Shown: positions 4,630-64,000, counted from the stretch's first letter. The stretch: 64,000 nt of DNA from Polyangia bacterium (GCA_030427835.1 JAUICN010000005.1:130496-194495); one strand, 5' to 3'. Numbers and translations: made by a program. Notes: a model not told the origin generated them from the letters alone.

Positions 4630-4765
4630 CCCCCGACTATGCGTGGGTTACGCCCAGGATCCAGTGGATCCGGGGTATCCTCGCGACGCGATCCCTCATC
4701 TGCTTTCTTTGAAGCGGTTTCTGCAAGCGTTTCGGTGTGCAGGGAAATCAGGCTATCATGGCGCC

Positions 4766-12194: not shown

Positions 12195-12200
12195 GTCGCT

Positions 12201-13745
12201 GTGAACTCCTCGACTGCAATCCCCCTAGGTGGTTGGCTTTTCCTTGGCCTTGCCAGTTGTGCTGTTGGCTGTGTTGCCCGTTCTTCTGCGCCTGCAACCG
12301 CAAAGACGCCATTTGAAACAGCGTCATCAGAAACCGCACCCTACGAAGTGAAGTGGTCGGTGGTGCCGTTTGAGGAGTCTTACAATCAACCACGGCTGTT
12401 TGTGGTGCCGACGATCGAATCCTACGGCGGGGATATCGAACGTCACCAGGCGCGAGGGTTCTGGCATCGCCACGGGCTTGTGGGCACCATGGCGACCTAC
12501 CTGGGTCCCGAGGAAACGGGCATCTCCACACCTGGCGCGAACGAACCCGGTTTTTATCGGGTGCAGCTACAGCACAACAGGTTGGACACCCCTGAGCCGG
12601 GCCAGACCGCAAAAGAGTTGAGTGAAGTGGCTGGCAAACAGGCCACTTTGAATGCCACCGCGGATGCGGTGCCACTGCCGCTTCAGCGGTGGTACCAGGC
12701 GGGGTATCCTGCGGTTCGCTTTCTCGCCACCTCCGTCTGGGGTGGCCCCAGTGCGGCGACCCACTTCTCGCCCAGGGAACCGAGTCCAGTACAATTGGGC
12801 ACCCTACGCCTGTGTCCTACTCCCGACGGTTGTGAAGATGTTTGGGTGTTTGCGGAACGGGTGACCCCCATCTACCTGACCCACGCTCGCCACCTATCGC
12901 CGATGCTTGCTCCAGGGTCAGTACCTGCTGAGCATGTTGCAGCTGTGAATCCTGCCACAGGCAGTATCCGCGACGTGGAACAAGCAGGGATCCGGTACGC
13001 GCAACAGGTGCTGAGTTCGATGGCACGGGCAATCCAAGTGCAAGGCGATGGAACTCGTGATGACTCCCCGGGAGGCCGCCTATTGACACGACTTTCGCAG
13101 ATCGCTGAAGCCACCGAGGTTTGGAACCGGCGCAACATTTTTGGTGGCTGGGGAAGTGCCCGCCGATTGGACGTGCGCAATCTTCGACCGGAAGTACTTG
13201 CACTCGACGCACCCGGCATGAAAAGGTGCCAAGCCCATGCCCTGGAACTCGTGATGCTTTTTCACCAGGTCACGGAGTTCGTGCTGGGGGGGTCGGTTGA
13301 GTTGCGCGATGCGCTGACCACACGGCTGGGAGAAGACGTGGCGCACCGCTTGCTCATTCTTCTGTTGAATGGCCAGGGCCTCAAACTCGCCAACGATTCT
13401 AGCGCCACCCTCAAGGACTATTTGTATTCGGTGAGCAATTCGATCCCCTGGGAGTTTGATCAGAAGTGCAAAAACATGGGTGGCATGGGCGACCCGATAC
13501 ATTCGGATCTATTGGAGAAAGCCCTCGAGGAGCTGCGAATACGGGCGACTGTGTACCGTTCCATCCTGAGCCACGCTTCGGTCCGAAACGCCCGGGCCAT
13601 GACATTGATGGAGGATATCTTTCTGCTCTATCTAGAGGGTTGGAATGCCTGGTACGGAGGAAACCACGGAGGCTCCGGCGAGATGGCTACGGCGCTGGAC
13701 ATCCTGGAGGCACACTGGGGTGTCTCACCGCCTTTTGATGGATAG
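12201..13745 (+). CDS. Hypothetical lipoprotein, paralog 2 of a tandem pair (family C)
   Basis: GTG start 6 nt after the upstream stop, with AGGAGGA 12 nt upstream. Lipobox GLASC. APYEVKWSVVPFEESYNQPRLFVV is paralogous to 10773-12194. Confidence 0.7.
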   Translation: MNSSTAIPLGGWLFLGLASCAVGCVARSSAPATAKTPFETASSETAPYEVKWSVVPFEESYNQPRLFVVPTIESYGGDIERHQARGFWHRHGLVGTMATYLGPEETGISTPGANEPGFYRVQLQHNRLDTPEPGQTAKELSEVAGKQATLNATADAVPLPLQRWYQAGYPAVRFLATSVWGGPSAATHFSPREPSPVQLGTLRLCPTPDGCEDVWVFAERVTPIYLTHARHLSPMLAPGSVPAEHVAAVNPATGSIRDVEQAGIRYAQQVLSSMARAIQVQGDGTRDDSPGGRLLTRLSQIAEATEVWNRRNIFGGWGSARRLDVRNLRPEVLALDAPGMKRCQAHALELVMLFHQVTEFVLGGSVELRDALTTRLGEDVAHRLLILLLNGQGLKLANDSSATLKDYLYSVSNSIPWEFDQKCKNMGGMGDPIHSDLLEKALEELRIRATVYRSILSHASVRNARAMTLMEDIFLLYLEGWNAWYGGNHGGSGEMATALDILEAHWGVSPPFDG

Positions 13746-13968
13746 ACCTTACGGCACGCAGCTTGCTGTGGGTGCGCAGGTATGGATCTTGTGACGACGG
13801 CGAGTTGGACACGTTTTGGATGCACCGCAGTCTTGGCAGGCCTGTTCTCGCTGGGGTGCACGACTGGCCCGGGGTCCTGAAGACTACCGAGGATCTATTT
13901 AGGGACGTGATGGAAGCCCACATCGCCACCCTTGGGGGGTGAGGACGATGAATCCCAACGGCCGCGGC

Positions 13969-14008
13969 ATTATTCTGCACATTCTACCGCGCAGATAATA
14001 TGCAGAAT
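13969..14008. promoter_or_regulatory. AT-rich inverted-repeat operator-like site (ATTATTCTGC ... GCAGATAAT a TGCAGAAT)
   Basis: Half-site ATTAT(T)CTGC occurs in both orientations. Both arms recur at 42745-42766, upstream of dnaK. Confidence 0.4.
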
Positions 14009-14062
14009 GAGTGGATGGGAGCAGGGCTTGCCTTTGGGGGCCGGGGCGGCGATGATTCGGCC

Positions 14063-42924: not shown

Positions 42925-42976
42925 CTCCGTCATGGCGTTGGTGGAAACAGAGCGAACGCGGGGCACGATGATCGCA

Positions 42977-42992
42977 TGGCATGTGAATTGCC
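42977..42992 (+). promoter_or_regulatory. Sigma-54-type -24/-12 promoter-like element (TGGCATG-tgaa-TTGCC)
   Basis: GG at 42978-79 and GC at 42990-91, 10 nt apart. The element lies 20 nt upstream of ATG 43012. Confidence 0.55.
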
Positions 42993-43011
42993 CATAGTGC
43001 TCGCATTTCCA

Positions 43012-44796
43012 ATGAAATCACCACAGGACAAGTTGAGGCGCTCCCTCCTCCGTATGGGTTTCCCTTTTTCGTGGCTCCTATCTTGCGCATTCGCTACGCA
43101 ACTCACTGGCTGCGGGGCGCGCCAGGAACGCACGCACCAGAAATCGGTGGAAGCAGGGTTCGTCGACGAAGTATCGATCGCCTTCGATTGGCCGGAACTG
43201 CACCCCTGCCAGCGGAGAAGGACTATCACTCTGGGTGGAACCGAGGGCAACACTTCGCAGCGAGAGGTGGTGCCCGCTGCTTGGGTTCCTCTCGTGCTCA
43301 AGTACCGACCGAACAATGAAACTCGAACACTATTTCTAGTGTGGGCCCTGTCTGGCGGCCTAGGCAGGGAAGCGTTTGCTCGAGGGTTTCATTTGGAACG
43401 GCCCTCTCCTGAAGAGGAGCCTCCAAAGTGTGAGGGGGTCCGCAGTTCGCTGCACCAGGGAAGTCAAACGGCATCGGATTTGAATCGCCTTATTCAGCAC
43501 CTTTTGGGTGAAATGATCCTTCCGAGTGCACTGGTTGTGTGGAACGCTCCCTCCACGTACGGCAAAACCATTCCTGGGGTAGGGCACCAGTATCGTGCGC
43601 TCGAAGACGCGATCCCCAGCAGTTGGTTGAACCAACTCGACCAACCATGGTTTGAGAACTTACCGGATAGGATGCAGTTGGCATCGGACAAAGAAGACGA
43701 GACCTTAGCAACACTTCGTGGGTGGGAGGAACAATGGAAACCAACCGTAACTAAGTTAGAACATCGGCTCAGGGCGTACGCCCTAATCCGGCACTACATC
43801 GATTTGCGACGAGCACAGCTTCCCAAAACCTGGAGGGGGAAAACACCTCCGGCCCAACTATCTCAAGCCGAATACGCCGGGATGTGGATGCTTGCCGAAC
43901 TAAAAGCAAACTACAGCGCTCCAAAATATCGTAGATGGTTGGAATCGATCGGAAAATTTGATGGAAAGCATTTTTCTATCGGAAAATCATTTGAATCTAC
44001 GTGTGTTGGATTTTCTCCCCCATTCAAGGGCGTACTGTTACCGACGCGAGGTTCATTGGATGGACCGGCACCGATTCTGGAGGAGGAGTTTGCCGCCTTT
44101 TGCAGGGGTTATCAGTCCAACCTTGGCTTGAGATTCACGACCAAAGGCTCTGACAGTGCGAATGAGGTGCGGTCCCTCGCCACCGCCTCAAGCACTGGTT
44201 ACCTTCAGGACTATTTTGATCCCAGCAGGACCCCGAAGAAATATCCGTGGCACATCTCCCAAGGGCATTGGGCCCTTGGCACGCAGGTTACGCCAGTGTT
44301 CGACGGTCATGTTGCGATTCAGCCGCCTGAACCCATTCAATGTCGTTCTGGCGGGGCCTACGTGGGTGGGGCGGAGGATTCGCCACCTTGCTACCGAACG
44401 CACATCGCGTTCTTCGACCCAGGTACAAGTGCTCACCGCGGGTCGCACCCCGATTTGGTGCTCCACATCGACGTCCAGTACGATCGTAAACCCAACCCGG
44501 GTACGGACAACCCCGTGTCACCGGACGACCTCGCGGGAAACTTTTTCATCGCCTACCCGTCTCACCTCAACCCGAACAACCATTGCCCGCAAACCTTCAA
44601 CGCACCGCCGCCTGGTGAGCACCCAAACTTGGCTGAGTGCGTGGTGCAGCGGCACACCATGAACGAAGCCATCGACGACGTGGTCACCCTGCTTGGCATC
44701 CACCGCGGCCTCCCCACATCCGATGTCACCGATTCCAGCTCTGAAACCAACGTCCTCAAACTCCTTCTAGCTAGCAACCAGTACCGAAGGCGCTAG
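43012..44796 (+). CDS. Hypothetical lipoprotein (595 aa), orphan
   Basis: ATG 43012 gives MKSPQDKLRRSLLRMGFPFSWLLSCAFATQLTGC (lipobox LTGC). No family recognised. GC is visibly lower than in flanking genes. Confidence 0.65.
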   Translation: MKSPQDKLRRSLLRMGFPFSWLLSCAFATQLTGCGARQERTHQKSVEAGFVDEVSIAFDWPELHPCQRRRTITLGGTEGNTSQREVVPAAWVPLVLKYRPNNETRTLFLVWALSGGLGREAFARGFHLERPSPEEEPPKCEGVRSSLHQGSQTASDLNRLIQHLLGEMILPSALVVWNAPSTYGKTIPGVGHQYRALEDAIPSSWLNQLDQPWFENLPDRMQLASDKEDETLATLRGWEEQWKPTVTKLEHRLRAYALIRHYIDLRRAQLPKTWRGKTPPAQLSQAEYAGMWMLAELKANYSAPKYRRWLESIGKFDGKHFSIGKSFESTCVGFSPPFKGVLLPTRGSLDGPAPILEEEFAAFCRGYQSNLGLRFTTKGSDSANEVRSLATASSTGYLQDYFDPSRTPKKYPWHISQGHWALGTQVTPVFDGHVAIQPPEPIQCRSGGAYVGGAEDSPPCYRTHIAFFDPGTSAHRGSHPDLVLHIDVQYDRKPNPGTDNPVSPDDLAGNFFIAYPSHLNPNNHCPQTFNAPPPGEHPNLAECVVQRHTMNEAIDDVVTLLGIHRGLPTSDVTDSSSETNVLKLLLASNQYRRR

Positions 44797-52617: not shown

Positions 52618-53532
52618 TCAAAGCCCCAGTAGGCCAAGTGCGTCACTTTCCCAGGGCTTCCAATCCGTTACGCTTGGATCGTTGTTGAGCTCCTGCAGTA
52701 GGCCACTTAGGAGTGCCTTGGGATCCTTTCTAGCACTCCGCAGTTCTGCCAACGTGGTGGCCTGTTCACGTTTGGAAAACTTGCGTCCGTCGCCGTTCCG
52801 CAGAAGGGGAACATGCATGTATTTGGGTGATTTCGCGCCAAGAGCGGCAAACACTGCCCGTTGTCGTGGCGTGGACGGCAGTAGATCCTCTCCCCTCACC
52901 ACTTCCGTCACACCCAGTGCAAGATCATCGACCACGGTGGCAAGCTGATAGGCCCAAAGCCCATCGGTCCGTTGCAGCACAAAGTCACCACCCCACTCCG
53001 CGCCATCCACGTTTCCAGCCCAGCCGTCCACAAACGCCTCCACGGGTTCGCGCATCATGAACCTCCAGGATGCGCCATCCTGGGGTACGTACGCTGGCAA
53101 GGTTGATCCCCTATTTGTATCCCTGGGCCGGCAGGTTCCCGGGTACCGAACGCCAAGCCCCTCCACCCCATGGGGTGCGGTCGCCGCCTGTTCAATATCC
53201 TTCCGTGAGCAGGTGCAAGGGTAGGTCCAGCCCTTCGCGGTCAACCTTTGCAGCGCCTGCGCATAGATCTCAAAACGTTTGCTCTGGTACACGGGAGCAC
53301 CATCCCAGGTGAGGCCGAGCCATTCCAGATCCCGAAGTGTTTCGTCCACATAGGCCTGCCGTACCCGTGGCCCATCCAGATCATCCACTCGCAGCAACAG
53401 CGAGCCCCCGGCTTCCCTGGCGCGCAACCAAGCAAGCAAAAACGTCCGCCCGTGCCCCCGGTGCAGACCCCCGGATGGCGTTGGCGCCATCCGCCCCACG
53501 TACTTCACAGCGTTCGTCACATCGAGCTCCAT
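52618..53532 (-). CDS. gluQ: tRNA glutamyl-Q(34) synthetase (GluQRS)
   Basis: GRMAPTPSGGLHRGH, RVDDLDGPR, YPCTCSR, LATVVDDLALGVTEVVRGEDL and KFSKR motifs. Confidence 0.85.
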   Translation of the reverse strand: MELDVTNAVKYVGRMAPTPSGGLHRGHGRTFLLAWLRAREAGGSLLLRVDDLDGPRVRQAYVDETLRDLEWLGLTWDGAPVYQSKRFEIYAQALQRLTAKGWTYPCTCSRKDIEQAATAPHGVEGLGVRYPGTCRPRDTNRGSTLPAYVPQDGASWRFMMREPVEAFVDGWAGNVDGAEWGGDFVLQRTDGLWAYQLATVVDDLALGVTEVVRGEDLLPSTPRQRAVFAALGAKSPKYMHVPLLRNGDGRKFSKREQATTLAELRSARKDPKALLSGLLQELNNDPSVTDWKPWESDALGLLGL

Positions 53533-53540
53533 CCGTGTCC

Positions 53541-53556
53541 TGGCACGATCCCTGCA
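53541..53556 (+). promoter_or_regulatory. Sigma-54-type -24/-12 promoter-like element (TGGCACG-atcc-CTGCA)
   Basis: GG at 53542-43 and GC at 53554-55, 10 nt apart. The element lies 28 nt upstream of ATG 53584. Confidence 0.55.
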
Positions 53557-53583
53557 AAACCATATCAGCAAAAGGCCCCCCCA

Positions 53584-55458
53584 ATGCCAAACCCCCCAAT
53601 TGCCCTCATAAAACTCACACGGGTCGCCCTCGCTGCGACATTTTTCACCGCCTGCCTGGGGCCCACAGACCTGAGTGAACAGATTAAGAACGTCGACTCC
53701 ATGGCCGCAGCGCCGGCACCCATGGGGATCATGGTCCTGGCAGACCCGTCTGAACTAGCTGCCCTAAATGGCGTTGGAAAACGCCCAGAGTTTTCAGCGG
53801 CGGAGTTTCATCGCCAAACCATGGAACAGGCGTTTGTTCCTGAATCCACTTCCCGGCAGTACAACCCGGAGGTCGTCCTAGTCAGCAAAGCCTGTGCAGA
53901 CCCGCAATCGCTCAAGTGCATTGCCTACGGCTTGCAGCGCTTCATGGGCATGTACCCCGAATCGGTCACCCAAGAGACCCTAAGCGAGCTCAATCGCCTG
54001 TACCACAAGCAACATCAAGCATTGACAACCGACCTCAATAGCAGCGCGCAGTACATCGCAGCCAAGTATGGAACAGCCCCACGGATGGAAGAACTTCGGG
54101 AAGAACTCGGCCGGCTCACCCTGGCGCACCACACAGGAAAGCTCGACGAGATGGCGGTGCCCTACAGATCCCTGTCCGAGCTATCGAACAACGAACCCAC
54201 CATGGACGACGTGGCCTTTTTGTTTGGCGCCATCCAGGACCTATCCAAGTTGCACGCGAAAATCCTTCGCGCCGATAGCAACGCAGAGCTTCGGGCGCTT
54301 TGGGACCTGGTGAACATCACAGGCTTTGTGATCCCCTTTGAGGCACCGGTATTGGCCGCAGCTTCTGAGGCGTGGCGATGGCTTCGTTTGACCGCAGAAC
54401 TTGCGGGTGAGCTCATTCCCCTGGGGGTCACCCAATCCATCAAGACAGGCGTCGGTCATATGGTCTACGCCACCCGGAAATCCATCAACACCCTAGGGCG
54501 CATCCGCGTCACCTGGGATCAGGAGGTCTTTCACCGCCTCCACATGGGCCTACCCATCCCCTTCAAGCTCACCCTCAAACCGGCTGCCATGGGCAGGGGC
54601 CGTTTCAGCGACGCCTACAAACGGTTTGCACAGGAGGCGCAAATGGCCTCCAGTCGTGATGATTTGATCCGTATTGCTGAAACGCACAACAACCCGATCG
54701 CAAAGGGCTCCTATTCCATCGTGGTGCCGCGAGGAAACGGCACGGTCATCAAGATTGCGACCGACAGCCGGTGGGACGGCCAGGCCGCAAGGGCACTGGA
54801 AACAGCGGTACAAGGTTTGAAGATCAGTGCTGAGATGGGCTACCGGGTTCCCGCCAAAGTCAGCAAGGTCACCCACTACCTCATGCGGGCATCCAACGGC
54901 ACGCAAACACCCGCGGCATCCATCACCATGCAAGAGATCATCTCCACCGGAAACCCCATCTACGGGGCAGGTCGCAACCCCGTGCTCGGTGCCATCCACC
55001 AGGCGTACCACCGCGGAATTCACGAAGCGCTTGTGGAGCCCCTGGCCAAGGAACTTTCACGGCGAGGTTTTGAACCCGATCTATGGCCTCGAAACACCAT
55101 ATTCGCAGGCAACTTCAAAAAGTATTTACAGCAAGTGGCCGACCTGTTTTCGAGCACCACAAACTCCCTTTGGTACTTCAAACCCACGGTCGAGTCCCCA
55201 CTTCGCAATATGGGCACGTCCACTGGGGATAGGCTCCTAAAAAATGTTCAGACCTTCGTTTCAGGAGGCCGCCTTTCGGCCGCGGAAGAAAGGTGGGTGG
55301 TGAACCAATTTGGAGATCGCTACTGGACCAACGATGCCGCTGAAATCCTTCTCAACGTCATGACGCGGGAGGTCTACGTCGCTCCCACCAACATCCCGCC
55401 AACGCTCTTCAAGGAACTCCGTGATGCCTGGGTCATCGTGGACCCTGTCGTGCCATGA
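53584..55458 (+). CDS. Lipoprotein, family B paralog 1, with a C-terminal protein-kinase-like motif set
   Basis: ATG 53584 gives MPNPPIALIKLTRVALAATFFTAC. The C-terminal region carries KGSYSIVV..GTVIKIA, ALETAV, FEPDLWPRN and VADLF motifs. The ORF-track start at 53248 lies antisense inside gluQ. Confidence 0.7.
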   Translation: MPNPPIALIKLTRVALAATFFTACLGPTDLSEQIKNVDSMAAAPAPMGIMVLADPSELAALNGVGKRPEFSAAEFHRQTMEQAFVPESTSRQYNPEVVLVSKACADPQSLKCIAYGLQRFMGMYPESVTQETLSELNRLYHKQHQALTTDLNSSAQYIAAKYGTAPRMEELREELGRLTLAHHTGKLDEMAVPYRSLSELSNNEPTMDDVAFLFGAIQDLSKLHAKILRADSNAELRALWDLVNITGFVIPFEAPVLAAASEAWRWLRLTAELAGELIPLGVTQSIKTGVGHMVYATRKSINTLGRIRVTWDQEVFHRLHMGLPIPFKLTLKPAAMGRGRFSDAYKRFAQEAQMASSRDDLIRIAETHNNPIAKGSYSIVVPRGNGTVIKIATDSRWDGQAARALETAVQGLKISAEMGYRVPAKVSKVTHYLMRASNGTQTPAASITMQEIISTGNPIYGAGRNPVLGAIHQAYHRGIHEALVEPLAKELSRRGFEPDLWPRNTIFAGNFKKYLQQVADLFSSTTNSLWYFKPTVESPLRNMGTSTGDRLLKNVQTFVSGGRLSAAEERWVVNQFGDRYWTNDAAEILLNVMTREVYVAPTNIPPTLFKELRDAWVIVDPVVP

Positions 55459-55591
55459 GTCGCGTGATCGGCTTGAGAGCATCGAGAAACCGGTCGAGTG
55501 GTCTGGGCCGCAGTGGCCACCGGGTTGCAATATGGCTCCGCCGAGCCTGTCCCTGATGGGGAAATCTTCCAAAGGTCCGTGGTTTTCCGCT

Positions 55592-55607
55592 TGGCATGAA
55601 GGGTGCT
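55592..55607 (+). promoter_or_regulatory. Sigma-54-type -24/-12 promoter-like element (TGGCATG-aagg-GTGCT)
   Basis: GG at 55593-94 and GC at 55605-06, 10 nt apart. The element lies 15 nt upstream of ATG 55622. Confidence 0.45.
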
Positions 55608-55621
55608 TGGGCATCCTTCCC

Positions 55622-57055
55622 ATGCATCAACGATTTCTGTATTTCCTTGGGAGCCTGGCCCTTGCGGTCCTTGCCGCATGCAGCCTAGGCCCCACTCCTG
55701 ACCGTTCATCCAAGGGTCATCTCTCCTCGGCGCTGCAAGACACATTGTTTGTCATGGCGAAGTTTCCAAGGTTCGGCTGCGTGGTCGATCCACAGACGGT
55801 GGTCACCCATCCCTTTCAATCGCCCGCCTTTGCGGTGCGCTGCCCCCAGCGTTCCGGGGGCCCAAGCGGCATTCAATGCAAGGGCCCCCAGGGAAACCAA
55901 AGCTGTGTGGTGGATGGCCTTTTCGCCACCTCAAGTGAGTTAGCCTCCGTGCAACGCACGCCCCAGTCCTACGAACAATGGGTAGCCCAACAGCATGCCC
56001 TAGCCAACGGGGCCCTACGGGGGTCAGGCCACGTGCCCACCAACATATTCGCCGAGGCGACTCCCGATGACGAGGGCAACCTGGAAACATGGTCCCTACT
56101 TGCCATCTACGATCCCCACGCCATGACCCTCGCCGCCCTGGAAAACGGCGAAGACATCAACGATGTTGATCTGGGTGAGGCCGAAGCGCTCGGAATGCCG
56201 TTGGAGCTAGCAGAACAACCCGGTATTCGTTGGGGTGGCGGCCTGGGATACGTGGCCATTGCAGGCTCCTCTGTACAGCTACTGAGCACCCAAGCCATCA
56301 CGTGGAGGTCCCTCCGTCACCTGGTCAAGCGAACCATCGCCAACGCCATCATGACCGCCACCCTCATGGTCGACGTGGCCACCGAACTGGTGAGCCTGGA
56401 CGGAGCCCGGGAATATCAACTGCGCCGCGGCTACCACACCGCCTCCGGCATCACACTCCCTGTGCCCCCAGAGCACCAGGTATTCCGATCAGGCACCTGG
56501 CGCGAAGTGGATCTCGCACTCGGCCCGGCCGCCATCGCCCTTACGTGGGAGCGCCTGTCTGAGCCCTCCTCCGGGTCCACTTCCGGCAAGGTACTCACTG
56601 TGGGGTTGTCGGACATCATCCAGCGGGACGGCACCTTGGTGATGTTCCCCGAGTACAGCGACAAACTTAACGCATACAAATCCAGTTTTCGGCAAGACAG
56701 GTTCGACCGCTGTGGCATGGGCTATCTCGGGGTGTCCGGTACCTGCTACCAGATGGCCGGAACAGACCACCTTCTTTGCAGTGAAGCCGCGACTGTGTTT
56801 GCCGCCGCCTGCCTTCTACTCGACACGGCGCAGGTGTGGGACCCATCCTCTAAATGCGGAACAAGCCGAAGCCTGTGCAATGGCTTCCTTGTCTTCGACA
56901 GTGTGGCGGGTCGGCACGGGCTTTTGGTGAAGACCGCCCAAAGCCCGCCCGACGTGGTGCTGCAAAATGCCGCCAATCAGTTCAATCTCACCCACATGTG
57001 CAGCAACGGCTACGAATCCTGCATGCAGCGAAAAGAAATCACAGAGATCCCCTAG
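55622..57055 (+). CDS. Lipoprotein, family A paralog 1
   Basis: MHQRFLYFLGSLALAVLAAC. Shares the GGPSGIQC and GMPLELAEQP blocks with A2/A3 and a Cys-rich C-terminal module with A2. Confidence 0.7.
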   Translation: MHQRFLYFLGSLALAVLAACSLGPTPDRSSKGHLSSALQDTLFVMAKFPRFGCVVDPQTVVTHPFQSPAFAVRCPQRSGGPSGIQCKGPQGNQSCVVDGLFATSSELASVQRTPQSYEQWVAQQHALANGALRGSGHVPTNIFAEATPDDEGNLETWSLLAIYDPHAMTLAALENGEDINDVDLGEAEALGMPLELAEQPGIRWGGGLGYVAIAGSSVQLLSTQAITWRSLRHLVKRTIANAIMTATLMVDVATELVSLDGAREYQLRRGYHTASGITLPVPPEHQVFRSGTWREVDLALGPAAIALTWERLSEPSSGSTSGKVLTVGLSDIIQRDGTLVMFPEYSDKLNAYKSSFRQDRFDRCGMGYLGVSGTCYQMAGTDHLLCSEAATVFAAACLLLDTAQVWDPSSKCGTSRSLCNGFLVFDSVAGRHGLLVKTAQSPPDVVLQNAANQFNLTHMCSNGYESCMQRKEITEIP

Positions 57056-57197
57056 ATAGATCTGCCAATCCGGAATCAATTTCGGCTTCACAGCCTGGGC
57101 GGGGGTAGCCAGTAAGTGAGTGAAGTGGGGCCTACAGCCCACAGGAATCGCAGTTCCTACCACGTGTGCATCGTGCATTTGTGGCGCGATTGTTGTG

Positions 57198-57213
57198 TGG
57201 CACGGGACCTGCT
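57198..57213 (+). promoter_or_regulatory. Sigma-54-type -24/-12 promoter-like element (TGGCACG-ggac-CTGCT)
   Basis: GG at 57199-200 and GC at 57211-12, 10 nt apart. The element lies 64 nt upstream of ATG 57277. Confidence 0.55.
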
Positions 57214-57276
57214 TTACGGGGGGGTATGTTGTACCCCACCCCCCCAAATACAAAACTGAATCACCTGGCCGAATGC

Positions 57277-58659
57277 ATGTCGTGGCTCGGCTTGCTTGCC
57301 CTTACATCAACCGCCTGTGCCGTCGCGCCTGCGAACACAGCAGAGCACGTATTCGCCAACAAGCGAGCTGTAACCAACACTACAGAGCTCTCCGTGGTCG
57401 TGGCGGCCAAGTCCCAGCGGCACGATTGCTTGCCTGCACAACACGTGCGACCCGCGGATGACCTGCACCCCACCGCTTGGTACCCTGTCGAGTGCAAGCG
57501 CGGCAACCCCGGCCCCAGTGGCGTCGATTGTCACACCCGAGGATTGGACATCTATTGCACCATCTCCAACGCGTACGTTCCTGACGACGGCTCCCCTGAA
57601 ATTAGTGAAACACAACTCACCTCTGGAACATTCAACGATTGGCTCTCTCGCCAAATCGCAAGTGCACGTAGCCATCTGAAAAGTGGGCAGGCCCTGGCAG
57701 GATCCGGCGAAGTGTTTGCCTGGGGCGGACCCCAAAAATCCCCATGGCTCCACAACAGTGTAGTTGGAAAAGCCAAGTACAGCCTCACCGTCTACAACGT
57801 CATGGCGGTGGCGGATGCCCCTGCGTTTACGGCAGCTCTGGTGAACAACCACCCAGAATACGAACTGGATGAAGCCAAAGCTCAAAAAGCAGGGATCCCA
57901 CTGGAGTGGGTGGCAGCGCCTGCGATACTCTATGGCGAGTTTGGTTTCACAGCCGTACAGGCCAGTGCGCTTGAGGCCAGCGCGGGTGGTTGGATCATGT
58001 CGGCTGAAACCCTAAGCATGCTTGCCAGGGGCACCATCGCAAGAACCGCTTCCGCCTCGTTTCAGATTCACGGCCTGCTCACCTGGCTCTTCCCACCGAA
58101 AAACGGCGCCATCGCCTACCACGTGCTCGACGCCTACACCTACGGCGACACCACCCACATCACCCCCGCCACCCCACAAGACACCATCACCTCCGGCGAC
58201 TGGGACGACGTCCTCCCCCAACTCGCCACCCACGCCCTAGAACTCACAAACGCCATCTATGCAACCTCGACGACCAACATGCTTGTTCCTGACGCAAACG
58301 GCATCGTAGCCTACCCTGAAGAATTTGCCGCTGACATCGAGGCGGCCAAAACGGAGAGCGCATCGGCGAACTGTCACCGCGGGTATCGAGGGGTACGCGA
58401 CACTTGCAACGCAACTCACGGTGGCGATCTGCAAGACGACACGCGCCAAGCCTACTGCGACTACCTGGCGGCGGGATTCTTGAAAGGCTGTCGAATGGCG
58501 CAGTCCGCAGGAAACGCCCCATTCGCCTGCCAGGCTGGTTTCTCCAGTTGCAATTTTTACAGCATGATAACGCCAACGCGAGACACGTTTTGGGAGAGCG
58601 CCCCAACAGACCCGAGAACAACTGCCATCTGTGCTGAGGGTATGAACAAGTGTCAATAA
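57277..58659 (+). CDS. Lipoprotein, family A paralog 2
   Basis: MSWLGLLALTSTAC. Colinear with A3 over about 330 aa, through VECKRGNPGPSGVDCH, KSPWLH, AGIPLEWVAAPAILYGEFGF and ASASFQIHGLL. Confidence 0.75.
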   Translation: MSWLGLLALTSTACAVAPANTAEHVFANKRAVTNTTELSVVVAAKSQRHDCLPAQHVRPADDLHPTAWYPVECKRGNPGPSGVDCHTRGLDIYCTISNAYVPDDGSPEISETQLTSGTFNDWLSRQIASARSHLKSGQALAGSGEVFAWGGPQKSPWLHNSVVGKAKYSLTVYNVMAVADAPAFTAALVNNHPEYELDEAKAQKAGIPLEWVAAPAILYGEFGFTAVQASALEASAGGWIMSAETLSMLARGTIARTASASFQIHGLLTWLFPPKNGAIAYHVLDAYTYGDTTHITPATPQDTITSGDWDDVLPQLATHALELTNAIYATSTTNMLVPDANGIVAYPEEFAADIEAAKTESASANCHRGYRGVRDTCNATHGGDLQDDTRQAYCDYLAAGFLKGCRMAQSAGNAPFACQAGFSSCNFYSMITPTRDTFWESAPTDPRTTAICAEGMNKCQ

Positions 58660-58711
58660 GCAAAAGAATCCTGTGGGCGACAGGGAGGAAGCAGCCTGCT
58701 AACACCCCCGG

Positions 58712-59482
58712 GTGCGCTCCAACCTAGATACACTTTGCGGCTGCTTTCCCACGGGCAGGCACTACCCTGGGATTGCGGATTTGATCGCCAAATCCGTAGT
58801 CAAAGTGGATGGTTTGGCGGGTTCCTACACCCCGGATCGGGTTTGGAAGCGCCTTCCCCTGGTGGTCATCGACTTTGAAACCACGGGGCTGAACCCGGAA
58901 AACGATCGTGTGTTGGAAATGGGCCTGGTCTTCTTTCGGGACGGCAAGTTTGAGGATCGCCACAACTGGCTCATCAACCCTGGCATGCCCGTTCCCAAGG
59001 AATCCAGCGACGTCCACGGCATCACCGATGAACAGCTGGCAGACGCTCCCTTCTTTGAACAAATCTTTGATGAAGTCCTGGGCCACCTCAAGGATAGGGT
59101 GCCCGTGGCCTACAACGCCCCCTTCGACCGTAAGTTCCTCCACGCCGAAGCCGCACGCTTGGGCTATGGAGGGCTAACCCAACTGGGTGATGTGCCACCT
59201 GCGCTCGACACGGAAGCGGTGTGGATCGATCCCCTGGTGTGGGTACGTGAACTGCAAAAGTTCGAGAAGGGAAAAAAGCTCACCGACGTGGCCGCCCGCA
59301 TGAACATCCCGCTGGATAACGCCCACCGCGCTTCTGGCGACGCCGAAGCCACGGGCCACGTACTCATGGCACTCGCCAAGGACATGCCCGAATCCTACGG
59401 AGAGCTCGTTCGCATCCAGGGCCGCTACAGCGCCCAGCAGGAAGCCGAGTTCGCCGCCTGGCGCGCCAAGAGAAAGGGCTAG
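58712..59482 (+). CDS. DEDDh 3'-5' exonuclease (DNA polymerase III epsilon-like)
   Basis: Exo I VVIDFETTG, Exo II YNAPFDRKFL, Exo III HRASGDAEAT. The start is uncertain: GTG 58712 or GTG 58805. Confidence 0.8.
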   Translation: MRSNLDTLCGCFPTGRHYPGIADLIAKSVVKVDGLAGSYTPDRVWKRLPLVVIDFETTGLNPENDRVLEMGLVFFRDGKFEDRHNWLINPGMPVPKESSDVHGITDEQLADAPFFEQIFDEVLGHLKDRVPVAYNAPFDRKFLHAEAARLGYGGLTQLGDVPPALDTEAVWIDPLVWVRELQKFEKGKKLTDVAARMNIPLDNAHRASGDAEATGHVLMALAKDMPESYGELVRIQGRYSAQQEAEFAAWRAKRKG

Positions 59483-59486
59483 AGCA

Positions 59487-60557
59487 TTGTCGTCCACAGC
59501 AAAGCGATCCCTTCCATGGAGACAGGGGCTCGGCCTGCCCTGGTCCCCCAAGCGAAAGATCCTCGTATTCAGCGCCCTGACCGCCGCCGCAAGTTGGGGC
59601 GTTGTACTCATGTTCACGGCCCTGGGCGGCAAGGGTGGCACACCCGCATCTGCCGCGGTCTGGAGGCTCTACACCCTTTGCCCCGCCATGATGGCCCTGC
59701 TTGTGCGGGGAGCCATTTCCCAACAGCCCCTGCTCGGCCCCCTGGGCCTTTCCCTCAAACTCAACCGCTATTGGATGGTCGCCTGGCTGCTACCCATCGG
59801 CCTCACCGCCGCATCCTGGCTGCTTAGCGGTCTCGTACCTGGAATCAGCGTTAGCACGGACATCCAAACCTTTTTGGATCATTTCCAATCCCGTGCCGGT
59901 GCGGATCCAGAGGCCTATGCCACCTTTGAAAAACAGGTGCGTGAATCCATCGCCGACGGCCCCCACCCCGCGTTTCGCATGCTGCTCCAAGCCATGGTGG
60001 CAGGCATGACCCTCAACGCGCTAACAGCCCTGGGAGAAGAACTGGGCTGGCGCGGTTTCCTTTCGCACGAACTCGCAGCCCATAAAAACGCAGCCCACGC
60101 CGCGAGCAACAAGCGCAATGCCGATCAGTCGCAAGCGGTCGGCTCTGGAAACGTGGATAGGGCGTTTTGGAACCGCTCCTGGATCGTGGGTGGCGCCTGG
60201 GGCCTCTGGTACCTGCCCTTCGCGCTCACCGGCTTTCCCTTTCCCGGTGCGCCCGTCACCAGCGCCTTCCTTCTGCCCCTGTGGTGCCTCGCCACCGGCC
60301 CCCTGTTTGCGTGGTTGCGTGTACGCAGCGGCTCCATCTTCGCCGTGGGCATCCTGCACGGAACCTGGTTCGGTCTTATTGAATTGCCCCACCTCGTCAC
60401 CCGAGTAGCAGAAGGCACCCCCGCCTGGATGAACCACCTCGCCATCGGCCCCCAAAGCCTCATCGGAATCCTCCTGGCCGCCACAGTCTCCCTCTACCTA
60501 ACCACCCGCCCCCCACCCACTCCCCAGGGCTCAGAGCACCGCACAAACGTGGCCTAG
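59487..60557 (+). CDS. CPBP-family intramembrane glutamic endopeptidase (Abi-like)
   Basis: GEELGWRGFL and VGILHG motifs with multiple TM segments. The TTG start lies 4 nt after the exonuclease stop. Confidence 0.7.
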   Translation: MSSTAKRSLPWRQGLGLPWSPKRKILVFSALTAAASWGVVLMFTALGGKGGTPASAAVWRLYTLCPAMMALLVRGAISQQPLLGPLGLSLKLNRYWMVAWLLPIGLTAASWLLSGLVPGISVSTDIQTFLDHFQSRAGADPEAYATFEKQVRESIADGPHPAFRMLLQAMVAGMTLNALTALGEELGWRGFLSHELAAHKNAAHAASNKRNADQSQAVGSGNVDRAFWNRSWIVGGAWGLWYLPFALTGFPFPGAPVTSAFLLPLWCLATGPLFAWLRVRSGSIFAVGILHGTWFGLIELPHLVTRVAEGTPAWMNHLAIGPQSLIGILLAATVSLYLTTRPPPTPQGSEHRTNVA

Positions 60558-60784
60558 GCCCCGGTTTTCAGCTCAAATTTCGCGTCAACGCGCGTCCCAC
60601 TGGGGTTCAGTCACCCCAGCCAGGTGGCGGAACCGGTTGTGTTCCAAGGAACATTCGCTGTTCCCTCAGAACGACTCAGAATCACCTTGATATCAAACGG
60701 TATTCACATTTTTGCAGAGCAATACAGGCCCGCTGTCTGGAACACTTGCTGCTCCAGTTCTTAAGAAATCACGTGCTTTTTTGA

Positions 60785-60800
60785 TGGCACGGGCTGTGCA
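60785..60800 (+). promoter_or_regulatory. Sigma-54-type -24/-12 promoter-like element (TGGCACG-ggct-GTGCA)
   Basis: GG at 60786-87 and GC at 60798-99, 10 nt apart. The element lies 41 nt upstream of ATG 60841, which has a GGAGAA SD. Confidence 0.55.
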
Positions 60801-60840
60801 TCCATTTCTGCCAGACTCTCAGTTTTATTGGAGAAACCCC

Positions 60841-62493
60841 ATGCCCAGTCAGCTCATTCACAAATCCATCGCCCTAACCACCCTAGGCCTACTCGCCTGC
60901 GGCACTCCTTCTCAAGCGAATCGTACAAAATCCACATCTCCCGGGCACAGCATGGAGTTGTCCGGTGTTGTGGTCGGAAAATCGGTACGTCACGGTTGCC
61001 GGCCAACGGAAGAGATCTTTCCTTCAGACGATGACCACACCACAAGCTGGCATGCCGTCGAATGCAAACGAAGTAATCCAGGGCCCAGTGGTGTTTCCTG
61101 TCACTCAAGTACGTTTGGAGACCGGTATTGCACCGTCGGTAATATTCATATACCGGCAGACGGAACACCCGACATCACGGAGGCTCAGTTAACGGGACAG
61201 AGCTACGACGCATGGATCGTTCGGCAAGTCAGCAAGGCCCGGAAACGATTGAGAGATGGTCAGTCCATGGCAGTACTAAGCGAGGTTTTTGCCCTTAGCG
61301 GGCCCGAAAAGTCTCCGTGGTTACACCAAGATCCAATTCGCAGAAACAAGTACAGCATTAAGATAGCCAACGTAATGGGCGTGACCGACGCGCCTGGTTT
61401 GTCTGTGGCTGTAGCCAGGAACAACGAAGATATTGAACTCGACGAACAAGAGCTAGCCCGGTCAGGCATTCCCTTGGAACTCGCAGGAGCCCCTGCTTTA
61501 TTTTGGGGCGAGTTCGGTTTTGCGACGGCCGAAGCGTCGTCGATCGTGGTTACAGCGTCGTCTGGAGTGGGTAGCATTGGTATTGAGGCGCTTAGTTTCC
61601 TAGCGAAAGGAGCAATCGCCCGTGGAGCAGCAGCATCGTTTCAGATCGCTGGGATACTTGAGTTTTTCTTCCCCATTTTAGATGACGCGGAAGCGTATTT
61701 CGTTCACGAGGTGCGGCAGATAGACGGTGTGACCTCTGTGGAACCCGCGACTCAGCAGAATACTGTGGTGTCCGGTGAATGGAGTGAGGCACAGGCGCTT
61801 CTAGTGCGTCGTACGCTGGAACTTGCAAGCGCACACTACGGAGCGGACACGCTCGATAGAGAAGCAGTGGAAAAACACCTTGCTGGTCTTGATCTTCCAG
61901 AAACAGCGCTCGATGACGCTATCCGGCTTGCTCCATTGAATGCGGATCGACTAGAGGAAATCGCAGAGACCTATGGCAAGGGTGATGGATCGAGCATCTG
62001 TGAAGTCGTCGGTGCTGAAAACAGGGCAGAAGGAAGTGCCAACAACCACGTGATGTGTGAAAGAGGTCGAAAAGCCATTAGACCATCCGCTTCTGCCAGC
62101 TATTCCATGATGACCCTGCGGGCTAGAAATGGAAATCCCACACGCTTTATTATGGGCAAACTCCATTACACATATGGACCACGCCGTCTTCTGACTCAGT
62201 TCCCAGTGCCCATGGGCGATCGTCTGAGCGCCGGTGCCCATGGAGACTATTCGGTGACGCCAGGATTCCTACGAAGTCGAACAACAGACGTCCTTGTTGC
62301 CTTGGATGTGATTCACGCAGTGTACTCAGCCGCAAAGTGCCGCGAGCATCTGACCTACATGGTACCGATCTCCGCTACGGGTGCTCGATTCAGCTCGTTT
62401 GGTGATAGCTATCTTGTACAGTTCCCATCAGGTGGAAGCGTTCAGCTTGAAAAGTGCCTACCGAATACCCTGTCTGATGTCGGTCGTCTGTAG
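60841..62493 (+). CDS. Lipoprotein, family A paralog 3, with a distinct C-terminal module
   Basis: MPSQLIHKSIALTTLGLLAC. Homologous to A2 up to about nt 61850, then about 215 aa unrelated to A1 or A2. GC is visibly lower. Confidence 0.75.
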   Translation: MPSQLIHKSIALTTLGLLACGTPSQANRTKSTSPGHSMELSGVVVGKSVRHGCRPTEEIFPSDDDHTTSWHAVECKRSNPGPSGVSCHSSTFGDRYCTVGNIHIPADGTPDITEAQLTGQSYDAWIVRQVSKARKRLRDGQSMAVLSEVFALSGPEKSPWLHQDPIRRNKYSIKIANVMGVTDAPGLSVAVARNNEDIELDEQELARSGIPLELAGAPALFWGEFGFATAEASSIVVTASSGVGSIGIEALSFLAKGAIARGAAASFQIAGILEFFFPILDDAEAYFVHEVRQIDGVTSVEPATQQNTVVSGEWSEAQALLVRRTLELASAHYGADTLDREAVEKHLAGLDLPETALDDAIRLAPLNADRLEEIAETYGKGDGSSICEVVGAENRAEGSANNHVMCERGRKAIRPSASASYSMMTLRARNGNPTRFIMGKLHYTYGPRRLLTQFPVPMGDRLSAGAHGDYSVTPGFLRSRTTDVLVALDVIHAVYSAAKCREHLTYMVPISATGARFSSFGDSYLVQFPSGGSVQLEKCLPNTLSDVGRL

Positions 62494-62617
62494 TTGTTGT
62501 CCATCGAACCACCAGGCGCTTCTGCGAACAATGCGGTATTCCGGGCGCCTGTTTCCGGTTGAGCAAACCCGCTGTGCTATTTGATGGAACTAGTCGAGCG
62601 TTCATAGTGGTGAGCTG

Positions 62618-64000
62618 TTGTACCGTCTAAGCAACATCGCTCTGGTTCGCGCAACCCTTTTGGGATGCATGTGCCTACTCGCAGCATGCAGTGCGCCTGA
62701 CGCAGCAAGCATCAAGCGCACCACAAATCAGGCGCCCACGTCCGTTCAGGTTTTGTACAGTCCGGAGCAGCTTGCTCAGGTTCAGAAGCTGCAGGAGGAA
62801 ATGCGGGATCCGAACTCCCTGTTCTACCAGAAGACAACGCAGCTCCATGCAACTGCAGCCGTGCACCACCAATACAGCAACCAACACTTTGCCGCCCCGG
62901 ACGCCACCCAAACCCAACCCGTGTTCATTCCAAGCGAGCTTTCCAGGGCATGCAAAAACCCGCTCACAGGAAAATGCACCGCGGCACGCCTGAAAGTGCA
63001 GTTCGGCATGGAGCACATCGATGCTGGTACCGTCGTCGCGTTGGAGTCTGCGTACAACATCACTCGAGCGGATGTCGGAGCCTTTGTGGGCGTCAGAGAG
63101 GCGAAGTCCTACGGGTATTCCCTGCCCAATATGCTCGCCAACGGCGACATGGTGAAACTGCTCAAGGAATACGAGGCGATCGTCACTCAACACAGCCAGG
63201 GAAAGCTGTACAACCAACCTTTGCTCGAGCAAACCGCACATCAACTCGCCATGATCGAACGGGGCGAATATCTCTTGGCCGACGCCCATTTCCACCTGCA
63301 CGCCATCGAAGAGCTTCTCGCCTTCCGATCCCGGGTGGATTCCGCGTGGTCCTGGCGCCACGTGTCTGCCGTGGGTGAGGCACTCTTGCTTGCAGGCTGG
63401 GTGTTGCCCTACCACCTGATCCTTTTCGAGGCCTTTACTTCCATCCCCCTGGGTGCCGCCATCACGGCTGGCACTCGACACGGATTGCACTTGATTTCCC
63501 TGGGTACCTCCAGGGTTGTTACCGCCGCAGGCCAGGTAGTCCAAAAGCAGGTCTACGCCACCCTCCGCTATCTCAAGAACACAGGTGTTGTACGTTTGCT
63601 CAACGGCACCGGGCGCCTTCGAATCGTATTCAATCCAGCCGCCCTCTCCCGCATCTATGTCGGCGTTCCTGGTTCGCCCCTTAGGTTCGTGGTCGATCAT
63701 GTCGCCGATGTTCAAGTGGGCCCCAGGGTGTTCACCGCACTATCCGCGTTGGATGATGTAGCCTTTCGCAGCTTTGACGAAGTTCTCCTGTGGTTGGAAA
63801 GCCAACTCGACAACACCGTTAAGGTACTGGGTACCGATCGCCGCATCGGCGCCGCCACCCTCCGCATCACGGACGATGGTGCCTTTCTCATCCTAGGTAG
63901 GGATGCTGCCGCTTCCGGTAAGATTCTGAGTTCCCTAGAATCCGCGGCACCCAAACTCAAGCTGGGAAAACCTATTGCCACCATACTTTCAAACGGTGCA
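62618..64000 (+). CDS. Lipoprotein, family B paralog 2, 3'-truncated by the window edge (not in the ORF track)
   Basis: The frame is open from the stop at 62591-93 to nt 64000. TTG 62618 gives MYRLSNIALVRATLLGCMCLLAAC. Shares SRACKNPLTGKC, AWSW and VYATLRYLKNTG blocks with 53584-55458. Confidence 0.65.
   Translation, partial: MYRLSNIALVRATLLGCMCLLAACSAPDAASIKRTTNQAPTSVQVLYSPEQLAQVQKLQEEMRDPNSLFYQKTTQLHATAAVHHQYSNQHFAAPDATQTQPVFIPSELSRACKNPLTGKCTAARLKVQFGMEHIDAGTVVALESAYNITRADVGAFVGVREAKSYGYSLPNMLANGDMVKLLKEYEAIVTQHSQGKLYNQPLLEQTAHQLAMIERGEYLLADAHFHLHAIEELLAFRSRVDSAWSWRHVSAVGEALLLAGWVLPYHLILFEAFTSIPLGAAITAGTRHGLHLISLGTSRVVTAAGQVVQKQVYATLRYLKNTGVVRLLNGTGRLRIVFNPAALSRIYVGVPGSPLRFVVDHVADVQVGPRVFTALSALDDVAFRSFDEVLLWLESQLDNTVKVLGTDRRIGAATLRITDDGAFLILGRDAAASGKILSSLESAAPKLKLGKPIATILSNGA

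Follow-up and report, generated by a model that had tools for sequence, protein, structure and literature searches.

Gene content of the array

The window, i.e., the whole 64,000-nt stretch of DNA analyzed, closes with an array of seven genes on the plus strand (positions 53541–64000). Five of them encode putative lipoproteins of two families, designated A and B. The other two, lying between the second and the third family A genes, encode an exonuclease (EXO) and a CPBP-type membrane protease. The features of the array and its left border are as follows:

52618–53571, minus strand: gluQ-like gene (tRNA-synt_1c, Pfam), left edge of the conserved backbone
53584–55458, plus strand: B1, family B lipoprotein, 624 aa (ORF and translation)
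53656–54825: N-region of B1 common with B2 (approximately aa 25–414)
54826–55455: unique C-terminal part of B1 (aa 415–624)
55622–57055, plus strand: A1, divergent member of the family A lipoproteins, 477 aa
56609–57052: C-terminal module of A1 with eight Cys (approximately aa 330–477)
57277–58659, plus strand: A2, family A lipoprotein, 460 aa (an alternative start, ATG at 57226, would give 477 aa)
57376–58278: N-domain of A2 (aa 34–334), followed by a C-terminal module with eight Cys, predicted helical (aa 340–460)
58712–59482, plus strand: DEDDh (RNase T/DnaQ-like) 3'-5' exonuclease, EXO
59487–60557, plus strand: CPBP/Rce1-like intramembrane protease
60841–62493, plus strand: A3, family A lipoprotein, 550 aa
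60946–61857: N-domain of A3 (aa 36–339)
61873–62490: unique C-terminal module of A3 with four Cys (aa 345–550)
62618–64000 and beyond the window end, plus strand: B2, family B lipoprotein

All five lipoprotein ORFs were present at the positions given in an earlier note on this DNA. B2 was complete in L001, another host sequence, where it encodes 669 aa from TTG at 62618 and stops at L001 position 17402 (window-equivalent 64627), 15 nt before a convergent gloB gene. The public gene call for B2 begins at ATG 62669, and with this start the signal peptide would be lost. The intergenic gaps B1–A1, A1–A2, A2–EXO, CPBP–A3, and A3–B2 were 163, 221, 52, 283, and 124 nt, respectively, and the EXO–CPBP gap was 4 nt. 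The 52-nt and 4-nt gaps, already pointed out in the earlier note, hold for the chosen starts. No Shine-Dalgarno-like sequences were found upstream of the array genes, the promoter/terminator scan gave no excess over shuffle expectation, and there was no Rfam match in the window. On the antisense strand of the array region, ORFs exceeding 100 aa were frequent.

Signal peptides and predicted sorting

A lipobox-like cysteine was found in all five proteins. The lipobox FFTAC (Cys24) closes the signal peptide of B1; the corresponding motifs are LAAC in A1 (Cys20), LLAC in A3 (Cys20), and LAAC in B2 (Cys24). The lipoprotein signal peptides proposed previously hold less firmly for A2, which has a weak lipobox, TSTAC (Cys14), and an n-region without charge when read from the ATG at 57277. 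A low-complexity tether of 15–25 residues was present in each lipoprotein. On these features, the A and B proteins are putative lipid-anchored extracytoplasmic proteins.

None of the five proteins had Lys at position +2, as had been observed before, and outer-membrane localization had been predicted for all of them from this pattern. Ala at +7, present in A3 and B2, is counted by the Myxococcus xanthus rule as a second inner-membrane signal (as quoted in PMC5562445). Outer-membrane sorting is therefore not predicted for all five.

Relatedness and modular structure of families A and B

Both families were real. A2 and A3 shared 46% identity over about 300 aa (blastp, E 1e-95), and the E values of A1 were 1e-17 with A2 and 6e-16 with A3. 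B1 and B2 shared 23% identity over about 450 aa (blastp, E 1e-10), with a shuffle z of 20 for the N-part. A distant relationship between A and B was ruled out (hhalign probability 0.04%). When the N-domain profile of family A was run exhaustively with HMMER against 1.84 billion representative proteins, the only sequences retrieved were A1–A3 and a fourth paralog, A4, which belongs to the same sample and assembly and stands alone elsewhere in the genome.

The motif blocks formerly ascribed to the whole of family A are exact in A2 and A3 only. In A1, the motif region reads VRCPQRSGGPSGIQCK; SPWLH is absent, and GMPLE and GGLGY are found. Polar residues invariant in A1–A4 were limited to two Ser, two Asp, one Arg, and one Tyr, with no His, Glu, or Lys among them, which argues against a conserved catalytic center in the family A N-domain.

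In each family, an N-terminal body of 300–400 aa is conserved, and the C-terminal module differs between paralogs. The C-terminal parts of B1 and B2 were unrelated in shuffle tests (z = 0.1–0.2), and that of A3 gave z of 2 or less with those of A1, A2, and A4. The contrast of conserved N-terminal regions with differing C-modules, suggested in the earlier note, was thus borne out in both families, except that the C-module of A2 resembles those of A1 (z = 6.4) and A4 (z = 4.9).

Besides the lipobox Cys, A1, A2, A3, and A4 contained 12, 12, 8, and 10 cysteines, respectively, and B1 and B2 contained two each. The even count in every protein suggests disulfide bonding outside the cytoplasm. Four cysteines are conserved in the N-domain of A1; six to eight are located in the C-modules of A1, A2, and A4. 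Family B has a conserved cysteine pair in the N-region (Cys104/Cys112 in B1, Cys112/Cys120 in B2).

Searches for homologs and structural relatives

Scans of the seven proteins against Pfam, NCBIfam, PADLOC, and PHROGs gave no match for the five lipoproteins and revealed no toxin, defense, or phage families in the array. Isolated C-terminal modules had no Pfam match at E up to 10, and PDB sequence and profile searches with the five lipoproteins returned noise only. The previous statement that the two families cannot be assigned to anything named is therefore upheld.

In a word search of 5.8 billion proteins, B1 matched only itself. Word-index searches with A2 and with the joined C-terminal modules of A3 and B2 retrieved nothing beyond the query proteins themselves; the method is insensitive, as the A2 query missed A3 despite 46% identity. 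Metagenome pattern scans for family B and for A2/A3 found nothing. The orphan status of family B and of the C-modules, based on word-index searches and metagenome scans, is less secure than that of family A, based on the exhaustive HMMER search.

Structure prediction, proposed together with Foldseek in the earlier note as a check, gave models of low confidence. The AlphaFold2 model of A3 alone was unusable (pLDDT 33). The A2 model, built from a four-sequence alignment, had pLDDT 50.7 overall and 56–85 across most of the C-module; Foldseek found no match for it in the PDB (the best hit, E 0.08 and TM 0.14, is meaningless).

No close relatives of the host organism were present in the collections searched. 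The host SodB and thiolase were singletons at 90% identity, and the nearest EXO ortholog was about 57% identical. Since the lineage is poorly sampled, the genome-restricted status of the families partly reflects sampling. From these searches, A and B look like orphans, probably lineage-restricted, seen in no other sequenced organism.

Age, composition, and genomic context

The array genes had a host-like GC1/2/3 pattern, as in housekeeping genes; the exception was A3, with GC3 of 0.51, below its neighbors. For the N-domains of A2 and A3, pN was 0.35 and pS was 0.80 (saturated), which indicates that these copies are old and have been kept under purifying selection. Recent arrival by horizontal transfer, or as a mobile element, was considered and rejected: neither tRNAs nor flanking or tandem repeats were found, and GC3 was host-like except in A3.

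About 85 kb of host sequence was examined (the window, L001, and L002). Other orphan lipoprotein genes in the window were a tandem pair at 10773–13745 and lipobox ORFs at 14000–16540 and 42976–44796, and further ones were located in L002. Such paralogs are frequent in the host genome. The array resembles in this respect the lineage-specific (ORFan) lipoproteins found as paralog families in large myxobacterial genomes: tandem genes with a lipobox and no Pfam match that lie among housekeeping genes. A and B are distinct from these only in the N/C modular break and in flanking a conserved gene pair. The label is descriptive and names no functional family.

Exonuclease–CPBP pair and the conserved backbone

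The identification of the two middle genes as a DEDDh exonuclease and a CPBP protease was confirmed. EXO matched PF00929 (RNase_T; 1.3e-22, 81.5 bits vs. a cut-off of 24) and TIGR00573 of NCBIfam (85 bits vs. a cut-off of 71.5), and the CPBP protein matched the Pfam Rce1-like family (2.6e-8).

Orthologs of EXO, about 55–58% identical, were found in 17 Myxococcota MAG loci with conserved neighbors. EXO is immediately followed by the CPBP gene (29–32% identity) in 14 of the 15 informative related loci, and gluQ, divergently transcribed in the relatives, adjoins EXO in 15 of 16. The backbone order in relatives is gluQ, EXO, CPBP, a short variable gap, and gloB. The CPBP–gloB gap of these loci holds an SDR gene with or without an acylase gene, never a lipoprotein gene, and about 250 kb of related loci contained no A or B homologs. 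In the present genome, a 5.1-kb B1–A1–A2 block separates the gluQ-like gene from EXO; at the A4 locus, neither the EXO nor the CPBP gene is nearby. The adjacency of EXO and CPBP in relatives without A or B genes indicates that the lipoprotein genes are lineage-specific insertions around an ancestral pair. The survey of related genomes suggested in the earlier note thus showed no co-conservation of the lipoproteins with the exonuclease and CPBP genes, an outcome that the note had listed as speaking against its reading.

Proposed interpretation

We lean, without great confidence, towards a reading in which A and B are unrelated, lineage-restricted families of envelope lipoproteins that occupy slots flanking the ancestral pair and serve as scaffolds, not as toxins. 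The genes arose by old duplication and module replacement in the host lineage and fill two variable slots, one on either side of the EXO–CPBP pair within the gluQ/EXO–CPBP/gloB backbone. After Sec export, lipidation, and sorting, the proteins are predicted to reside in the envelope, the majority probably in the outer membrane, where they may act as non-enzymatic scaffolds showing different binding or structural modules. Their likely role would be in lineage-specific envelope or cell-surface interaction, not in toxin delivery. EXO and CPBP may be read through from A2, and they would be neighbors by history, not functional partners. Positive support for any function came neither from a homolog of known role nor from a confident structure (pLDDT 33 and 51).

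Judged from sequence, the best overall reading is that of fast-evolving modular envelope lipoproteins with a probably binding or structural role. Lineage-restricted envelope lipoproteins would then occupy variable slots of a conserved myxobacterial backbone, which adds two new sequence families and no new mechanism. The locus also holds a lesson on gene order: adjacency to CPBP and exonuclease genes suggested a system, and synteny shows that the pair came first.

Alternative interpretations

Many hydrolytic lipoproteins are exported by myxobacteria, and A and B might be lipid-anchored enzymes for predation or envelope remodeling, with the C-modules as new catalytic domains, e.g., an atypical kinase in B1. 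We consider this doubtful. A kinase-like module had been reported, and in B1 the spacing of the short motifs G375-x-x-S, VIK390, D499-L-W-P-R-N504, and D520 is kinase-like. However, the C-terminus of B1 had no Pfam match at E up to 10 and no PDB sequence match, and hhalign against four myxobacterial Ser/Thr kinase domains gave a probability of 1.6%. In the hhalign alignment, the HRD loop fell on another B1 segment (YHRGI), in conflict with the motif reading, and the B1 C-terminus was rejected as a kinase on these grounds. B2, moreover, lacks the kinase-like motifs of B1.

Exchange of C-terminal modules on a conserved N-terminal body is the mark of polymorphic toxins such as SitA, whose C-termini are mostly recognizable nucleases acting in the cytoplasm. 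It is therefore conceivable, though unlikely, that A and B are SitA-like polymorphic toxins with immunity encoded elsewhere or otherwise provided; the N-bodies would be escort domains that bring the variable C-terminal toxins into sibling or competitor cells once outer membranes have been exchanged. In SitA proteins, the lipobox is followed by a disordered linker and a family-defining N-terminal domain of about 375 aa, and the C-terminus varies; they form six mutually non-homologous families (PMC8546572). The layout of A and B fits. Like the TraAB-delivered SitA of Myxococcus, they are myxobacterial, carry a predicted type II signal peptide whose lipobox is weak in A2, and lack Lys at +2, with Ala at +7 in A3 and B2 (PMC8546572, PMC5562445). 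They also share the low-complexity stretch after the lipobox, a family-specific N-region of 300–400 aa, C-modules that differ between paralogs (a modularity confirmed here among paralogs of one genome), and the occurrence of several unrelated families with one layout. The taxon is no bar, since traAB, and hence outer-membrane exchange, is also found in Sorangiineae (PMC6372800).

This resemblance, drawn in the earlier note, proved to be formal. A and B have no downstream immunity gene, toxin or nuclease domain, sitB-like gene, or prophage/mobile context. No immunity ORF was found between the array genes or after B2 or A4: none fits in the 124–283-nt gaps, in agreement with the previous observation that no small ORF follows each gene, and A4 is followed after 30 nt by a convergent kinase gene. 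The C-modules gave no Pfam match at E up to 10, whereas those of SitA are mostly nucleases. In A1, A2, and A4, they are cysteine-rich and predicted helical, and six to eight cysteines would be odd for a domain crossing the membrane into the cytoplasm. The paralogs are ancient, at 23–46% identity, and are neither newly diversified nor allelic variants. No named family resembles A or B in sequence; in particular, no homology to the SitA families was detected with NCBIfam or Pfam at E up to 1, in libraries that may lack SitA escort-domain models. The toxin/effector role suggested for the array was accordingly not borne out.

A variant of this reading, which we regard as quite unlikely, is that A and B could be two further, non-homologous families of contact-delivered escort-domain effectors in a deep-branching Polyangia-like myxobacterium, with unrecognized C-modules, without linked immunity genes, and with unlinked protection or non-kin prey instead of siblings as targets. 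If a SitA-like function were true, lipoprotein effector delivery would extend past the known SitA families and the Myxococcus group, and immunity would be solved differently from SitA.

Bacteriocin-immunity proteins and myxosortase are members of the CPBP/Abi family, and the lipoproteins, CPBP, and EXO could form one operon-level system in which CPBP processes or releases the lipoproteins or gives immunity to them. The seven genes lie on a single strand with short gaps (52 nt between A2 and EXO, 4 nt between EXO and CPBP), and the CPBP protein has the Rce1-like/CPBP fold family in common with the immunity proteins and myxosortase (MrtX), with a weak match to the myxosortase core (NCBIfam Mrt_core; 19.4 bits, E 8.5e-4). 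That score, however, is far from the cut-off of 100 bits, and a MYXO-CTERM-like ending (Cys motif, transmembrane helix, and Arg cluster) is absent from all five lipoproteins. The CPBP protein has orthologs kept beside the exonuclease in relatives without A or B lipoproteins (14 of 15 informative loci), and A4 has neither gene nearby. Such a system is very unlikely.

Decaying or non-functional ORFs, or gene-calling artifacts in GC-rich DNA, would agree with the absence of homologs and of Shine-Dalgarno-like sequences and with the common antisense ORFs, but are hardly credible, as the ORFs are intact (460–669 codons), their codon-position GC is like that of housekeeping genes, and cysteines and motifs are conserved in four paralogs with saturated synonymous sites.

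Gene content of the locus

The locus between 53.5 and 64 kb of the window contains seven plus-strand genes, among them five for putative lipoproteins of two families, designated A and B.

Genes of the locus (window coordinates, strand, product)
53584-55458, +, B1, putative lipoprotein of family B, 624 aa
55622-57055, +, A1, putative lipoprotein of family A, 477 aa
57277-58659, +, A2, putative lipoprotein of family A, 460 aa
58712-59482, +, EXO, exonuclease, 256 aa
59487-60557, +, CPBP protease, 356 aa
60841-62493, +, A3, putative lipoprotein of family A, 550 aa
62618 onward, +, B2, putative lipoprotein of family B, 669 aa counted from TTG

B2 passes the window end, and its complete sequence was taken from a public contig of the same DNA. 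In all five putative lipoproteins, a hydrophobic N-terminus is closed by a lipobox-like cysteine (FFTAC in B1, LAAC in A1, TSTAC in A2, LLAC in A3, and LAAC in B2) followed by 15–25 residues of low complexity; the lipobox of A2 is the weakest. Public gene calls place other start codons in A1 and B2, by which the signal peptide is lost, and the starts proposed in the earlier note were preferred as the sensible ones. Sorting of all five proteins to the outer membrane, also predicted there, is less uniform than claimed: the sorting rule as quoted in PMC5562445 takes in Ala at +7 too, and this residue is found in A3 and B2. The assignments of the two enzymes were correct, EXO being a DEDDh exonuclease (RNase_T, 1.3e-22) and its neighbor a CPBP/Rce1-like protease (2.6e-8). 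A 346-aa ORF lies antisense inside B2 (window 62675-63715, minus strand), and several further ORFs of >100 aa run antisense to the lipoprotein genes; these are most likely spurious products of GC-rich DNA.

GC content by codon position of the lipoprotein genes was like that of neighboring housekeeping genes; a lower third position was seen only in A3 (0.51 vs. 0.64–0.74 in paralogs and neighbors). The 283-nt gap upstream of A3 is the most AT-rich gap of the locus (51% GC). Synonymous differences between the N-terminal domains of A2 and A3 are saturated (pS 0.80) and non-synonymous differences are held at 0.35, which indicates that the duplication is ancient and the protein sequence is under selection. 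By these sequence measures, the lipoprotein genes are real and old.

Two families of putative modular lipoproteins

Pairwise comparisons upheld the grouping into two paralogous families. The identity of A2 and A3 is 46% across about 300 residues (E 1e-95). A1 belongs to the family as a remote member (E 1e-17 against A2, 6e-16 against A3), and B1 and B2 are 23% identical across about 450 residues (E 1e-10). The motif blocks reported for family A are exact in A2 and A3 but not in A1. Kinship between the two families was considered and rejected (hhalign probability 0.04%).

The claim that conserved N-terminal regions are combined with exchanged C-terminal modules was upheld by shuffle tests, which confirm the modular picture of both families. 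The N-terminal parts of B1 and B2 scored z = 20, and the last 200–270 aa scored z = 0.1–0.2. In the A2/A3 alignment, identity of about 50% drops to 10–20% near A2 residue 320–335; the C-module of A3 scored z of 2 or less against those of A1, A2, and the fourth paralog A4 (see below). The A2 module resembles those of A1 (z = 6.4) and A4 (z = 4.9).

Beyond the lipobox cysteine, the cysteine count is even in every protein, which fits disulfide-bonded proteins outside the cytoplasm. Family A has four conserved cysteines in the N-domain, and its C-modules contain eight (A1 and A2), six (A4), or four (A3); family B has a single conserved cysteine pair. No His, Glu, or Lys was present among the columns invariant across all four A proteins, and nothing in these columns points to a conserved catalytic site.

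Modeling of A3 alone with AlphaFold2 yielded nothing usable (pLDDT 33). A model of A2, built from an alignment of the four paralogs, was marginal (pLDDT 50.7, pTM 0.46); most of its C-module reached pLDDT 56–85. The A2 model suggests an N-terminal beta domain that surrounds the four cysteines, followed by a long helix, an ill-defined middle rich in Ala, Ser, and Gly, and a helical C-terminal module.

Database searches and a fourth paralog

No family match was obtained for any of the five lipoproteins in Pfam, NCBIfam, PADLOC, PHROGs, or PDB, nor for single modules when E values of up to 10 were admitted, in agreement with the earlier note, which could place them in no named family. The N-domain of family A, run as a profile in a full HMMER search of 1.84 billion cluster representatives, recovered only A1, A2, A3, and one further protein, P0004 (E 2e-6). 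This protein, A4, is a fourth paralog of full length: it has a lipobox, the GPSG-Cys motif, and six cysteines in its C-terminus (525 aa, positions 6224-7801 of contig L002), and it originates from the same sequencing run and NCBI assembly as the window. Its gene is solitary, flanked on one side by a DHDPS gene and on the other by a convergent gene for a PAS histidine kinase. L002 also carries lipobox ORFs with no Pfam match at 4194-5060 and 13415-14521. Family B and the C-modules were searched with an insensitive word index and metagenome pattern scans, which returned nothing.

The 185,579 GTDB species representatives do not include this genome. Its housekeeping proteins SodB and thiolase each form a singleton cluster at the 90% identity level in a set of 15 billion proteins, and its nearest orthologs are just 38–67% identical. 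With a GC content of ~60%, it appears to belong to an isolated Polyangia-like lineage. Since this lineage is very thinly sampled, the absence of A and B elsewhere is partly a sampling effect. At the level of sequence both families are new.

Genomic context in related Myxococcota

A scan of species-representative genomes with EXO yielded 17 loci (55–58% identity), all from Myxococcota MAGs labeled Polyangiales, Sandaracinaceae, or similar. Mapping by tblastn with the window proteins revealed a conserved backbone: a polysaccharide-synthase-like gene, a LuxR-type regulator (minus strand), gluQ (minus strand), EXO, CPBP, a gap of 0.9–3 kb, gloB (minus strand), and rsmD-coaD. gluQ adjoins EXO in 15 of 16 informative loci, and CPBP directly follows EXO in 14 of 15. 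The tightly spaced EXO and CPBP (window 58712-60557) are conserved beside gluQ in 14 MAG loci (within L004-L019), and the N-terminal motif CGCFPTG(R/H)HYPGI of EXO is shared by the window and L003.

In this genome, a 5.1-kb block, B1-A1-A2, separates gluQ from EXO, and A3-B2 (3.8 kb) fills the gap before gloB. The latter gap in relatives harbors a short-chain dehydrogenase gene, at times together with one resembling penicillin acylase, and in no case a lipoprotein gene; in L007, L009-L011, L015, L016, and L018 the dehydrogenase is 270 aa long, and some of these loci have in addition a 713-aa penicillin-acylase-like gene (minus strand). The window slot lacks both genes. The insertions bear no marks of a tRNA, flanking repeat, tandem repeat, or integrase.

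Neither tblastn nor unfiltered hmmsearch detected A or B homologs in about 250 kb of the related loci. Because EXO and CPBP are adjacent in relatives that lack A and B, the pair is, on this comparison, ancestral. The lipoproteins are thus not co-conserved with it, an outcome that the earlier note had itself named as part of what would speak against its reading. The short gaps from which co-transcription with A2 had been suggested there (52 nt for A2-EXO, 4 nt for EXO-CPBP) are real; they are a by-product of insertion and no evidence for a common function.

Possible nature of the lipoproteins

The best-supported reading, which we adopt with guarded confidence, is that A and B are envelope lipoproteins of modular build, old and fast-evolving, which are specific to a sparsely sampled Polyangia-like lineage and whose genes occupy two variable slots in the conserved backbone. 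A non-enzymatic binding or structural role at the envelope is favored. That the C-modules represent novel enzymatic modules is unlikely.

Less likely still is a role as effectors similar to SitA, the lipoprotein toxins of Myxococcus. As described by the Wall laboratory, SitA proteins have a disordered stretch behind the lipobox, an N-terminal escort domain of ~375 aa by which six families without mutual homology are defined, and C-terminal toxin domains, mostly nucleases, that other toxin systems have as well; sitA and the sitI that always lies behind it form an operon, which is often carried on mobile DNA (PMC8546572). A and B do resemble this order of lipobox, linker, N-domain, and variable C-terminus, and traAB, to whose carriers SitA toxins are confined (PMC5562445), is present in Sorangiineae (PMC6372800). 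However, none of the six lipoprotein genes (A1-A4, B1, B2) has space behind it for an immunity gene, as the earlier note had itself remarked for the locus; no recognizable toxin domain and no mobile context were found. The C-modules of A1, A2, and A4, three of the four in family A, are rich in cysteine (six to eight residues each), and that of A2 is predicted to be helical. While the observations in the earlier note were mostly correct, a polymorphic-effector locus built around an immunity-like CPBP gene is not supported.

The kinase-like module of the earlier note, looked for in the B1 C-terminus, is regarded as unsupported: short motifs do occur there in kinase-like spacing, but there was no Pfam or PDB match, the profile-profile probability against four myxobacterial Ser/Thr kinase domains from the related loci was 1.6%, and the resulting alignment contradicts the motif reading.

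Other putative orphan lipoproteins of the genome

Further lipoprotein-like genes are located elsewhere in the window.

Other lipoprotein-like genes (window coordinates, strand, product)
10773-12194, +, first of a tandem orphan lipoprotein pair, 473 aa, lipobox VGGC
12201-13745, +, second of the pair, 514 aa, lipobox LASC/AVGC
14000-16540, +, large lipobox-like ORF, 846 aa, SGAC, no Pfam family
42976-44796, +, large lipobox-like ORF, 606 aa, LTGC, no Pfam family

The tandem pair has no Pfam match and is unrelated to A and B; its members are paralogs (25% identity over about 500 aa, E 6e-24). Lipoprotein-like genes amount to about 9 of roughly 48 in the window. Given these other paralogs, orphan lipoprotein paralogs are a general trait of this genome, and the locus is not special in this respect.
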